DNA of 64,000 nucleotides, taken from NCBI GenBank assembly GCA_022709865.1, contig JAKLIA010000001.1, positions 127,591 through 191,590 on the forward strand, given 5' to 3'. Both the position numbers and the translations under genes were made by a program. Origin of the DNA: Patescibacteria group bacterium (GTDB lineage Bacteria; Patescibacteriota; Minisyncoccia; Portnoybacterales; GWB1-42-6). Under the pieces are notes generated by a model that worked only from the letters and a program-made list of their open reading frames with translations, was not told where the DNA came from and ran no database searches. Below are positions 111 to 60,843 of this stretch, one piece after another (the first letter of the stretch is position 1; every line of letters begins with the position of its first letter).

Positions 111-136
111 CCCCACACCTATGCATAGGTGTGGGG
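111..136. repeat. 26-bp perfect palindrome CCCCACACCTATGCATAGGTGTGGGG between convergent genes; a second copy lies at 56233-56258
   Basis: Read directly: arms CCCCACACCTA and TAGGTGTGGGG are reverse complements; flanked by A/T runs; sits at the 3' end of the minus-strand flavodoxin gene, so it could be a hairpin terminator or REP-like element. Confidence 0.6.
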
Positions 137-40829: not shown

Positions 40830-40864
40830 CAAACGACCCCGCATTTGCGGGGGAGGCAGTTGGG

Positions 40865-40997
40865 GAGAGCGAGCCAACTGCTTGGCTCGCGTGAGGGATG
40901 AGAACGCCGGAGCGTTGCCGAGCCAGCAGGCGAGGCCGCGAGGCGGTGGTTAGGCCGAGGAGCGCGGCGGCGCGACGAGAGCCGAAACCGAATCCCG
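40865..40997 (+). repeat. GC-rich structured repeat element, copy B, immediately downstream of tRNA-Gln; homologous to 37748-37871
   Basis: Same conserved blocks as copy A; the hairpin GCGAGCCAA-CTGC-TTGGCTCGC carries a compensatory A:T to G:C pair change relative to copy A; preceded by an extra hairpin CCCCGCATTTGCGGGG at 40837-40853. Confidence 0.8.
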
Positions 40998-41002
40998 ACT
41001 TT

Positions 41003-41263
41003 ATGGCTTATTATACTTATATCCTCGAATGCGCCGATAAATCTCTGTATGTCGGCTGCACTAATAATTTAGAGAAAAGAGTAAAGGAGCATAACAATTC
41101 CAAGTGCGGTGCGCATTATACAAAAATCCGCCGACCGATTATTTTAAAATATTCGGAAAAATATAAAACATTACTTAAGGCGCGCCGGCGCGAAGCGGAA
41201 ATTAAAAGTTGGAGACGGGATAAAAAAATACATCTAATTAAATTTGGTAAACTTAAAACTTAG
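41003..41263 (+). CDS. small GIY-YIG domain nuclease (YhbQ/UPF0213-like)
   Basis: 86 aa from MAYYTYILECADKSLYVGCTNNLEKRVKEHN... with the GIY-YIG pattern (YtYIL, YvGcT, R, E, N); the ORF-track N-terminal extension back to 40898 reads through the repeat and is rejected. Confidence 0.7.
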   Translation: MAYYTYILECADKSLYVGCTNNLEKRVKEHNNSKCGAHYTKIRRPIILKYSEKYKTLLKARRREAEIKSWRRDKKIHLIKFGKLKT

Positions 41264-55892: not shown

Positions 55893-55958
55893 TTGACTAA
55901 TTTTTAAATAGGGCTTATTTTTAATTTAATGTTTTTTAACAATAAAAGGGGGGTAAAA

Positions 55959-56192
55959 ATGGAATTAATATCAATAACCGCTCAAGCAACCCAGATTGTT
56001 AGGCAGTCGAGAGTAGATATTATTGTTGCTTACGGCAGCAATAATGAGACCACTCGGACGCTTTCGGTTTCGCCTATGGTTGGGAGGCTAGCAGAAAATC
56101 CAGGGAATAAAATTATTGTAGAAAAGGCGTTTATCGAGTCCTTGCCAAGCGAGATTGACGGCAAGGGGAAACTCATTGACATTTGGATCTAG
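55959..56192 (+). CDS. small hypothetical protein (77 aa from MELISI...; the ORF track starts at 55929)
   Basis: SD AAAGGGGGG lies 6 nt upstream of the ATG at 55959; followed by a terminator; no family recognised. Confidence 0.4.
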   Translation: MELISITAQATQIVRQSRVDIIVAYGSNNETTRTLSVSPMVGRLAENPGNKIIVEKAFIESLPSEIDGKGKLIDIWI

Positions 56193-56197
56193 GCAAT

Positions 56198-56230
56198 GGA
56201 CCTCGTTTAAAAAAACGAGGTCTTTTTTTT
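56198..56230 (+). terminator. intrinsic terminator (GGACCTCGTTT-AAAAAAA-CGAGGTC plus TTTTTTTT)
   Basis: Read directly. Confidence 0.75.
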
Positions 56231-56232
56231 AT

Positions 56233-56258
56233 CCCTACACCTAGGCATAGGTGTAGGG
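56233..56258. repeat. 26-bp perfect palindrome CCCTACACCTAGGCATAGGTGTAGGG (second copy of the element at 111-136), abutting a TTGACC -35 box
   Basis: Arms CCCTACACCTA and TAGGTGTAGGG are reverse complements; relative to copy 1 the arm differences are compensatory; TTGACC at 56264-56269 is 18 nt from TATCAT. Confidence 0.6.
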
Positions 56259-56318
56259 ATTTGTTGACCGAAAGGTGCTAGTAGGTTTATCATTATAAGC
56301 AATAGAATAAATTGTTTT

Positions 56319-56909
56319 ATGAATAAGAGCCTTGATTTTTCACGGAGGGCTCTGAATTTAAGTTTGGCTATTTATCGGATAACAACCAAGTTCCCAAATG
56401 GCGAAGCGCTATCTGGGCAAATGCGGAAAATAGGCAATGAGGTAGCGGGCGATTTAGCAGCCAATAATTTTTCTGGCATCGAAAAAAAGATTGATCGCTT
56501 AAAAATATATTTTGCCATTGCCAAAGCGCAAAACTGGGTTAAGCCGATAAATTGGTCAATTCTGGAAAAAGAATATTGCAAATTAAAAATGGAGGTTGAT
56601 TTTGAGTTGAGAGCGGGCGAGACAGAAGAAAGCGAAGAAGCTATAATAGTGTCGCACAATATTAAGGAGGTAAAAAAACGGAATCGCCTGAAATCTGCTA
56701 TTCCGGCCCAAGAAAGGTTAAATTACCGCCAATCAAAGATCCTGACTGCCTTGGATAAGAAAAGCGGCTTAAAGATGTCCGAATTGGTTCCCCTTTTTAA
56801 TGACGAGATATCAGAACGCACTTTGCGCAATGAACTTCAAGACATGGTTCGGGGTGGTTTGATAAAAAAGAACGGGACAAAAAAATACACAGAATATTTG
56901 AAAGGGTAA
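56319..56909 (+). CDS. putative transcriptional regulator: N-terminal four-helix-bundle domain plus C-terminal winged-helix DNA-binding domain
   Basis: 196 aa; N-terminal RRALNLSLAIYRITTKFPNGEALSGQMRKIGNEVAGDLA resembles the four-helix-bundle proteins found in rRNA intervening sequences; the C-terminal SKILTALDKKSGLKMSELVPLFNDEISERTLRNELQDMVRGGLIKK looks wHTH-like. Confidence 0.45.
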   Translation: MNKSLDFSRRALNLSLAIYRITTKFPNGEALSGQMRKIGNEVAGDLAANNFSGIEKKIDRLKIYFAIAKAQNWVKPINWSILEKEYCKLKMEVDFELRAGETEESEEAIIVSHNIKEVKKRNRLKSAIPAQERLNYRQSKILTALDKKSGLKMSELVPLFNDEISERTLRNELQDMVRGGLIKKNGTKKYTEYLKG

Positions 56910-56910
56910 T

Positions 56911-56970
56911 TTCTATCGGCAATCTATCGGCAACTTGTTGCCGATAGATTGCCGATAGATTGCCGATAGA
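56911..56970. repeat. hairpin built from tandem 11-bp repeats: CTATCGGCAAT x2, a GTTG spacer, then ATTGCCGATAG x3
   Basis: Read directly; about 24 bp of perfect inverted symmetry with a repeat-copy imbalance of 2 versus 3; fills the whole intergenic gap before rfbA. Confidence 0.7.
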
Positions 56971-60314: not shown

Positions 60315-60353
60315 GGGTGTTTAAGGCAAAAGCCGCTATATTTTAATAATTGG

Positions 60354-60382
60354 TTGACTATCGGATAGTTATTTTATATACT
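60354..60382 (+). promoter_or_regulatory. near-consensus sigma70 promoter (TTGACT, 17 nt spacer, TATACT) about 460 nt upstream of the giant surface-protein gene
   Basis: Read directly; the -35 overlaps the palindrome CTATCGGATAG; there is no other gene between it and 60844. Confidence 0.6.
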
Positions 60383-60843
60383 TATTTTATAGAAAAAAAC
60401 CCATTTTCTGCCTTAATTAAGGGCTTTGTCCTTATCTGGGCACGGAAAGGAACTGAAGGTCGTCAAGGCATTTGAGGTTGAAATCCCTCATGTGTTTTGA
60501 GTTGTCGTTTCCGAATGGATTTTTGAAACAAAAAAATAATAAAAAAATAAAAAATCAATTCAGGGATTATTTTTACTTGGCCCCCATTGCGCATCTGTTT
60601 CTTATTGGAACACAGCGGAATGAAAAAAAGGGGGGTGGCAGATTAAACCTCGAGGACACCTCGCTAATATCTTTCGTTATTCGATAAGATAGAAAGCGTA
60701 AATCTCGTTTTAACGAGACCAGGGGGTAAAATTCTGCGGCGCAAGCCCAACAGGATTCTCGCAGGAAGAAATGAGCTTATGAATTGATATTAATTCTGAC
60801 AATTAAAGAAATTTAATTGCAGGATAAAAACAACAAATTAACA

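Follow-up and report, generated by a model that had tools for sequence, protein, structure and literature searches.

Two short palindromes in a Portnoybacterales genome are probably miniature inverted-repeat elements with longer relatives that encode a GIY-YIG nuclease

Ssn nucleases are single-domain GIY-YIG proteins of ~94 amino acids (aa) (CDD cd10448) that bind a hairpin repeat in single-stranded DNA (ssDNA) and cleave next to it. The hairpin repeats, NTS/SRM, stand on either side of their genes, and the arrangement NTS-ssnA-NTS has been likened to an insertion sequence (IS) by the authors who described it (Chenal et al., Nat Commun 2025, PMC11893778). Compared by published description, the Ssn nucleases and their hairpin repeats appear to be the closest known system to the one described here. 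We have analysed 64 kb of DNA from a member of the Patescibacteria (Portnoybacterales; contig JAKLIA010000001.1, positions 127,591 to 191,590), hereafter called the window, in which there are two copies of a short palindrome. Each palindrome is very probably a 28-bp non-coding member of a small transposable-element family, that is, a miniature inverted-repeat transposable element (MITE).

The likeness to the Ssn system lies in a single-domain GIY-YIG protein of about 90 aa (83-86 aa here), in a gene bracketed by 20-50-nt inverted repeats and in the many solo hairpins dispersed in intergenic DNA. There are also differences. The SRM motif HGTCWY..RNCYNB matches none of 107 sites of the family and nothing in the window, whereas the NTS control matches. 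The flanks of the gene are here the two halves of one palindrome and not two complete hairpins. Additionally, a 4-bp target-site duplication (TSD), empty sites and deletion derivatives are found here, while PMC11893778 mentions neither target duplication nor the hosts involved, which are Patescibacteria and other uncultured phyla.

Bacterial MITEs such as the Correia elements and MITEAba12 resemble the palindromes in being non-coding, dispersed and mostly intergenic, with terminal inverted repeats and a short TSD, and in deriving by internal deletion from a coding element with the same termini. They are usually 100-400 bp long, whereas the palindromes are only 28 bp, which amounts to two abutted repeats, and the coding relative is here a unit of ~296 bp with a GIY-YIG nuclease rather than a DDE transposase. 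The sequence-level features by which MITEs are recognized are all seen in the family: terminal inverted repeats, a TSD of fixed length, presence and absence at orthologous places and a longer coding relative with the same termini.

The pattern CCCYACACCTA-N4-TAGGTGTRGGG has two matches in the window, at 111-136 (copy 1) and 56233-56258 (copy 2), against 0.00 expected from 100 shuffles. These are the coordinates and sequences given by an earlier reading of the window made from the sequence only (the sequence-only reading), which took both copies to be perfect palindromes. This holds for copy 1, in which two more bases on each side belong to the symmetry, so that the palindrome is perfect over 30 bp (109-138). 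In copy 2 (56231-56260) the 13-bp arms are perfect, but the GGCA between them is not self-complementary. The arms of both copies (13-15 bp) are perfectly complementary, and the C>T/G>A difference between the copies is indeed mirrored across the arms. Folded as ssDNA, copy 1 gives a hairpin of -14.3 kcal/mol (z -7.5) and copy 2 one of -13.2 kcal/mol (z -8.3).

The sequence-only reading overlooked that each copy stands between 4-nt direct repeats. Read as an insert, copy 1 is TAAA-TCCCC...GGGGA-TAAA (106-141), in which the 28-bp element TCCCCACACCTATGCATAGGTGTGGGGA (110-137), a perfect palindrome that matches the consensus of 101 sites, lies between a left TSD at 106-109 and a right TSD at 138-141. 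These two repeats are seen by direct reading and in the table of flank pairs, where TAAA/TAAA is among the two commonest (12/101). Copy 2 is TTTA-TCCCT...AGGGA-TTTG (56228-56263), with flanks that agree at three of four positions. The 28-bp element TCCCTACACCTAGGCATAGGTGTAGGGA (56232-56259) has the mirrored C>T/G>A change and the GGCA centre; its left flank repeat, TTTA (56228-56231), is the end of the T-tract of the upstream terminator, and its right flank repeat, TTTG (56260-56263), is immediately 5' of a -35 box. Both copies have the 'TC..GA' ends that are common to ~12% of family sites, and the mirrored T/A variant of copy 2 is also present in L055 (L numbers denote fetched loci).

Copy 1 lies between convergent genes, as the sequence-only reading had it: an open reading frame (ORF) on the + strand that ends at 90 and a flavodoxin-like gene on the minus strand (181-648). 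An intrinsic terminator hairpin with T/A tracts on either side, at 140-176, serves the + strand ORF and, in the opposite direction, the flavodoxin-like gene. On the + strand the hairpin was found at 140-167 by the terminator scan, and the minus-strand reading was made directly on the sequence. Copy 1 splits the minus-strand T-tail of this terminator into TTTTTA, the element and TTTATTTG. The setting given for copy 2 was likewise correct. On one side there is the + strand intrinsic terminator (56198-56227, with the hairpin at 56198-56223 followed by the T-tract) of a 77/87-aa ORF (55929-56192), found by the terminator scan, and copy 2 is inside its T-tract. On the other side there is the + strand promoter TTGACC-18-TATCAT (56264-56293) of a DeoR-like winged helix-turn-helix (wHTH) gene (56319-56909), and this promoter is kept in orthologues with or without the element. 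Each copy in the window thus interrupts the T-tract of an intrinsic terminator, and L055 and L069 are arranged alike. The same contig is found in several assemblies, with identical palindromes in each. A search of the window with Rfam at gathering thresholds gave four tRNAs and nothing else.

The sequence-only reading had proposed looking for further copies, and these exist. In a scan of GTDB representatives (one genome per species) with the pattern CCNACACCTANNNNTAGGTGTNGG, 106 loci matched, in comparison with ~9 by chance (our own estimate, 596 Gb / 4^18). The 28-mers have the formula (T/C)CCCCACACCTA-TGCA-TAGGTGTGGGG(A/G), and over 101 sites the extended consensus is YWWR-CC-CCCACACCTA-TGCA-TAGGTGTGGG-GG-YWWR. 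The termini of the family as a whole are inverted repeats of 12-14 bp, (C/T)CCCCACACC(T/A)A...(T/A)TGGTGTGGGG(G/A), and a 28-mer reads as a palindrome because its two terminal repeats abut. Nearly all loci are in Patescibacteria, spread over many classes (Saccharibacteria, Wolfe-, Sung-, Nomura-, Falkow-, Taylor-, Terry-, Portnoy-, Lipton-, Yanofsky-, Colwell-, Niyogi- and Jorgensenbacteria). The other carriers are metagenome-assembled genomes (MAGs) labelled Nitrospirota, Nitrospinota, WOR-3, TA06, Margulisiibacteriota and Stahlbacteria. Three matches, in Tenacibaculum, Lewinella and Lentilactobacillus, resemble ordinary terminators and fit the chance level. Some MAGs have at least six copies. 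As to whether copies are always intergenic, 92 of 107 sites (~86%) are not spanned by a long open frame. Among 2.9 million viral contigs there was no match to the palindrome, which is therefore not phage-borne. A dif/Xer site, a CRISPR repeat and a protelomerase site were each considered and dropped, because the copies are multiple, solitary and flanked by duplications.

The flanks have the character of TSDs. Identical 4-nt direct flanks are present at 43 of 101 distinct sites, whereas 10,000 permutations of the right flanks gave 8.1 on average and never more than 19. Inverted matches between the flanks of the 101 sites are about as frequent as expected (9 against 8.5). The commonest pairs are TTTA/TTTA (14), TAAA/TAAA (12), CAAG/CAAG (5), CTTG/CTTG (3) and CCAG/CCAG (2), so that the TSD is 4 bp of the form YWWR, mostly TTTA or TAAA. 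The fifth base, beyond the TSD, is biased on one side only (TTTA followed by T, or TAAA preceded by A), as predicted for a target that is asymmetric and duplicated. The landing of both window copies in terminator T-tracts fits this preference for TTTA(T).

The sequence-only reading also held that the symmetry of the arms is selected, and this is upheld across the family. The count was made on elements picked solely for perfect flank duplication, with the first 12 positions compared with the consensus. Departures from consensus were mirrored on both arms in 47 cases and discordant in 39, counts that are inflated by shared ancestry and are not of independent events. For elements longer than 40 bp, whose arms may be up to ~290 bp apart, the figures were 35 and 26. 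Independent mutation would make mirrored changes very rare, and the symmetry of the arms is therefore maintained. Compensatory change in the arms is thus a property of the family. It is consistent with ends that pair in a single-stranded intermediate, or with their co-evolution with a single protein that recognizes both.

The same termini and a 4-bp TSD also bound longer elements, and in the fetched loci there are examples of 26, 29, 30, 38, 64, 67, 68, 98, 100, 131, 134, 154 and 290 bp, giving a range for the family of 26 bp to ~300 bp. Degenerate copies and nested insertions occur in L004, L069 and L070. In L004 (5500-5590, minus strand) the loop of a 36-bp relative with the TSD TATA holds a 28-mer with the TSD CTTG, directly 5' of a distant homologue of the wHTH gene, and in L070 (114-313) nested copies, every flank repeat of which is CAAG, stand on both sides of a tRNA gene.

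The 290-bp element, at 2732-3021 of L003 (Sungbacteria), has 20-bp terminal repeats around a complete 86-aa ORF, the stop codon of which is inside the right repeat. The encoded protein is a GIY-YIG catalytic domain (PF01541, E 5e-18), and a metagenome scan with it gave 357 relatives. The best 80 of these 357 (63-100% identity) gave 65 distinct loci with enough flank. Both termini are present at 57 of these 65, with CCCCCACACC... 8-25 nt before the ATG and ...GGTGTGGGGG at or just after the stop codon. The median length of these coding units is 296 bp, and the sole ORF inside them encodes a one-domain GIY-YIG nuclease of 83-86 aa, with PF01541 covering residues 1-73. The 4-nt flanks of the units are identical in 18 cases and match at three of four positions in 16. 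The protein family comprises at least 542 clusters at 90% identity, and its best PDB match is UPF0213 protein BH0048 (1zg2; E 4.7e-5). In L208 (1501-2684) a 179-aa gene is flanked by a pair of GIY-YIG ORFs, of 85 and 86 aa, that are less than 1.2 kb apart from end to end.

Short and coding members are linked in two ways. On single contigs they have variant termini in common: CCCCCGCACCAATT in L162 and L157, TCCCCACACTCAT in L145 and CCCCCACACCATAA in L148. Additionally, a 135-bp element in L195 (176-310), with 20-bp repeats and the TSD TTTG, still encodes MFYACAIKSNKDANLYIGFTNDF, which is the first ~25 residues of the GIY-YIG nuclease (hmmsearch E 3.4e-8). As this element keeps the 5' end of the ORF, short members arise from coding units by internal deletion, and at least one of them is such a derivative of the ~296-bp unit.

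There is a GIY-YIG gene in the window too. It is a stand-alone gene on the + strand (41003-41263) that encodes an 86-aa nuclease (PF01541, E 4.9e-16) similar to the repeat-flanked ORFs (phmmer E ~1e-15), and no terminal repeats were seen in its flanks. The region 40831-41263 consists of a tRNA-Gln gene, a G+C-rich spacer of 170 nt that contains hairpins, and this gene. GIY-YIG genes are also beside tRNA genes in L050 and L059, and close relatives of the stand-alone gene form more than 4,200 clusters in genomes of the Candidate Phyla Radiation (CPR).

Comparison of orthologous loci shows places with and without the element. The promoter of the wHTH gene (TTGACC-17/18-TAnnAT, with a recognizable -35 box) can be aligned in eight genomes, and in five of them (L193, L194, L195, L197 and L198) there is no element 5' of the -35 box. 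In all of these except L194 the T-tract of the upstream terminator abuts the -35 box, e.g. ...GGGTTTTTTTG-TTGACC, with L195 and L198 reading ...TTTTTTTG-TTGACC where copy 2 would stand. The three occupied promoters (the window, L069 and L196) hold three different members of the family, 3-5 nt 5' of TTGACC: two 28-mers, one with the T/A variant and one canonical, and a 60-bp CCCGCACC variant. This pattern of presence and absence shows an insertion hot spot and not a conserved operator. Elsewhere, the GIY-YIG units of L165 and L174 are 45 bp apart in orthologous DNA, so that each locus is the empty site of the other, and a 52-bp element is extra in L162 and absent from L166 and L129. The presence/absence test covers the copy 2 locus and these two cases.

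A binding site for a dimeric regulator, one of the roles that the sequence-only reading had offered, is therefore not supported. On this explanation copy 2 would serve autoregulation of the DeoR-like wHTH gene. It is 4 bp 5' of the -35 box of a winged-helix gene, and the wHTH homologues in L069 and L004 also have members of the family just 5'. Three homologues in loci that had been selected by the palindrome have elements 5'; six orthologous loci were then fetched beyond these, and five of the six had empty promoters, for which reason the hot spot is preferred. Additionally, no family of neighbouring ORFs is enriched beside the 107 sites (the commonest is found at 6 of 106 loci), copy 1 is between the ends of convergent genes, and neither flank duplications nor relatives of variable length would be expected of an operator. 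Another conserved repeat (TTGCCGATA) recurs at all of the orthologous loci that were fetched, which makes it a better candidate. We regard the operator as highly improbable. Nor are the copies likely to be selected RNA hairpins, that is, extra intrinsic terminators or 3'-end stabilizers made alike by convergent or conserved terminator design. The hairpins are stable, both copies are just past the terminator of a gene, the Tenacibaculum, Lewinella and Lentilactobacillus matches do look like terminators, and copy 1 passes the terminator scan on the minus strand (13-bp stem, tail TTATTTGCTT). To this extent the earlier suggestion of a second terminator stands. However, copy 2 fails the scan and is without a T-tail on the + strand, and each copy is within the T-tract of a terminator that is already complete, so that termination is a secondary role at best. 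A terminator does not need 28 near-invariant bp, loop included, across many phyla, and the 4-nt flank repeats and the relatives with a GIY-YIG gene are left unexplained. This makes the RNA hairpin very unlikely, if slightly less so than the operator. The role that came closest among those suggested was that of an element like the repetitive extragenic palindromes (REPs), since the family is a dispersed, mobile repeat that forms hairpins. REPs and IS200/IS605 elements are not known to make target duplications, whereas TSDs are present here. REPs, bacterial interspersed mosaic elements (BIMEs) and the REP-associated tyrosine transposases (RAYTs) share with the family short, extragenic hairpin palindromes and a small nuclease gene flanked by repeats, and recognition of a hairpin in ssDNA is plausible for both. 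In contrast, direct reading finds no GTAG/CGTC head as defined for REPs (PMC3733652), the flanks being YWWR and the arms starting CCCCC, and the associated ORF is a GIY-YIG nuclease and not a Y1 transposase of the IS200/IS605 type with its HUH fold. That these are REP elements moved by a RAYT is the least probable of the explanations considered.

The main rival is a conventional DDE transposon, as yet unsampled, for example of the IS5, IS1380 or piggyBac type. It would own the termini, the 28-mers would be its MITEs and the GIY-YIG ORF would be a passenger or a homing-type coloniser of MITEs. Terminal inverted repeats with a 4-bp duplication are a hallmark of DDE cut-and-paste elements, and those of the IS5, IS1380 and piggyBac types have terminal repeats beginning CC, a 4-bp A/T-rich duplication and a TTAA-like target, which are features resembling this family. 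GIY-YIG enzymes are not known as transposases, and the sampled coding units do not have the exact inner repeat sequence of the 28-mers. However, the 1.06 Mb of DNA that was fetched around the 28-mers and around the GIY-YIG units contains no element longer than the GIY-YIG unit that is bounded by the termini and a matching TSD, and no DDE transposase between termini; the sole enclosed ORF is the GIY-YIG ORF. Of the 65 GIY-YIG relatives, 57 are tightly bracketed, the stop codon falling inside or beside the right repeat, and such packing is that of an autonomous IS and not of a passenger. Short elements carry the variant termini of the GIY-YIG unit on the same contig, and the absence of the palindrome from viral contigs also counts against this rival. 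We therefore think it unlikely, although clearly less so than the other alternatives.

Several points weigh against reading the palindromes as MITEs of a GIY-YIG element. The evidence for movement is comparison between genomes, and among the assemblies found for this organism the window copies do not differ. The scan pattern fixes 18 positions, where conservation is by construction; the positions left free are near-invariant (C at 97/101 sites, G at 93/101, outer CC/GG at 82-93/101). A repeat-flanked GIY-YIG unit is not seen in the 64-kb window. The termini of the sampled coding units end ...CCTAAT or ...CCAATT and those of the 28-mers ...CCTATG, and among these units no direct parent of the 28-mers was found. 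A minority of the coding units are flanked by inverted TTTA...TAAA. The identical GIY-YIG proteins P0257 and P0252 are each at one locus across many samples, and there is therefore no evidence of recent transposition or bursts. Finally, GIY-YIG nucleases are hydrolytic and are not known for strand transfer, which does not account for a 4-bp duplication.

That the GIY-YIG protein is the mobilizing enzyme is a proposal to which we give a little less than an even chance. The protein, supplied by a coding unit or in trans by a stand-alone homologue such as that at 41003-41263, would recognize the CCCCCACACC/GGTGTGGGGG termini, possibly as a stem in ssDNA as Ssn nucleases do. It would make the breaks by which the element leaves or enters a site, staggered by 4 nt at the target, and joining might be carried out by the protein itself or by host repair and ligation. 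The mirrored changes in the arms would then reflect a requirement that the ends either pair or are recognized by a single protein. Somewhat more tentatively, the ~296-bp units, which consist of 12-20-bp repeats and one ORF for an 83-86-aa GIY-YIG nuclease, may be autonomous transposons moved by their own nuclease that spread horizontally among Patescibacteria and neighbouring uncultured phyla.

The two copies in the window are most likely selfish passengers with possible side effects of their hairpins. Behind the terminator of the flavodoxin gene, copy 1 supplies a further hairpin and a T-rich tail, and copy 2 adds 32 bp between a terminator and the next promoter and leaves the -35 box untouched. 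Effects on termination or promoter context are putative, and a dedicated regulatory role is not indicated.

The wHTH gene beside copy 2 has features of its own. Its protein has 196 aa, with an N-terminal part like a four-helix bundle (a weak NCBIfam match to '23S rRNA intervening sequence protein') and a C-terminal winged helix of the DeoR type. The family is small (64 clusters) and has a fixed place between rmlD and rmlA in Portnoybacteria and relatives (rmlD - X - rmlA). Between the wHTH gene and the first rmlA-like gene (56912-56970) there is an array in which TCTATCGGCAA (two copies) faces TTGCCGATAGA (three copies), and TTATCGGCAA/TTGCCGATAA repeats recur in this position at all of the orthologous loci that were fetched (L193-L198 and L069). 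This array is probably the real operator of the wHTH regulator. In L198 (3661-4528) there is an IS110-family transposase (DEDD_Tnp_IS110, Transposase_20) beside the rml cluster, which is unrelated to the palindrome family. In the last part of the window, a stretch of ~500 nt (60330-60840) that contains no ORF precedes a very long, repeat-rich ORF that resembles surface proteins and runs from 60845 to the window end.

A search of the literature, with subscription-only literature outside it, found no report of these termini, of the TSD, of units bounded in this way around a GIY-YIG gene or of MITEs in Patescibacteria. In a study of CPR rRNA genes, inserts that encode GIY-YIG proteins were described as neither introns nor explained by homing (PMC11270868), and these may be the same elements as the present family. 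The family is thus one of MITEs and IS-like elements tied to an Ssn-like nuclease. There is a substantial chance that it represents a new class of transposase, and the ~296-bp units may be the smallest self-contained bacterial transposons.

For annotation of the window, both palindromes should be labelled as repeat or mobile-element features and not as regulatory sites. If the GIY-YIG protein does move these elements, the system would be very compact, with a coding unit of ~290 bp and a non-coding form of 28 bp. The enzyme would belong to an unrecognized class of prokaryotic transposase, the coding unit would be the smallest self-sufficient DNA transposon known, at less than half the size of IS200, and the 28-bp palindromes would be the smallest MITEs. 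The nucleases would be small and sequence-specific with a known recognition sequence of 10-12 nt, and thus possible tools. Ssn-type nucleases would have a mobile-element origin, with terminal repeats, a 4-bp duplication, empty sites and deletion derivatives, and the recurrent, unannotated small GIY-YIG genes in genomes of the Candidate Phyla Radiation would be explained.

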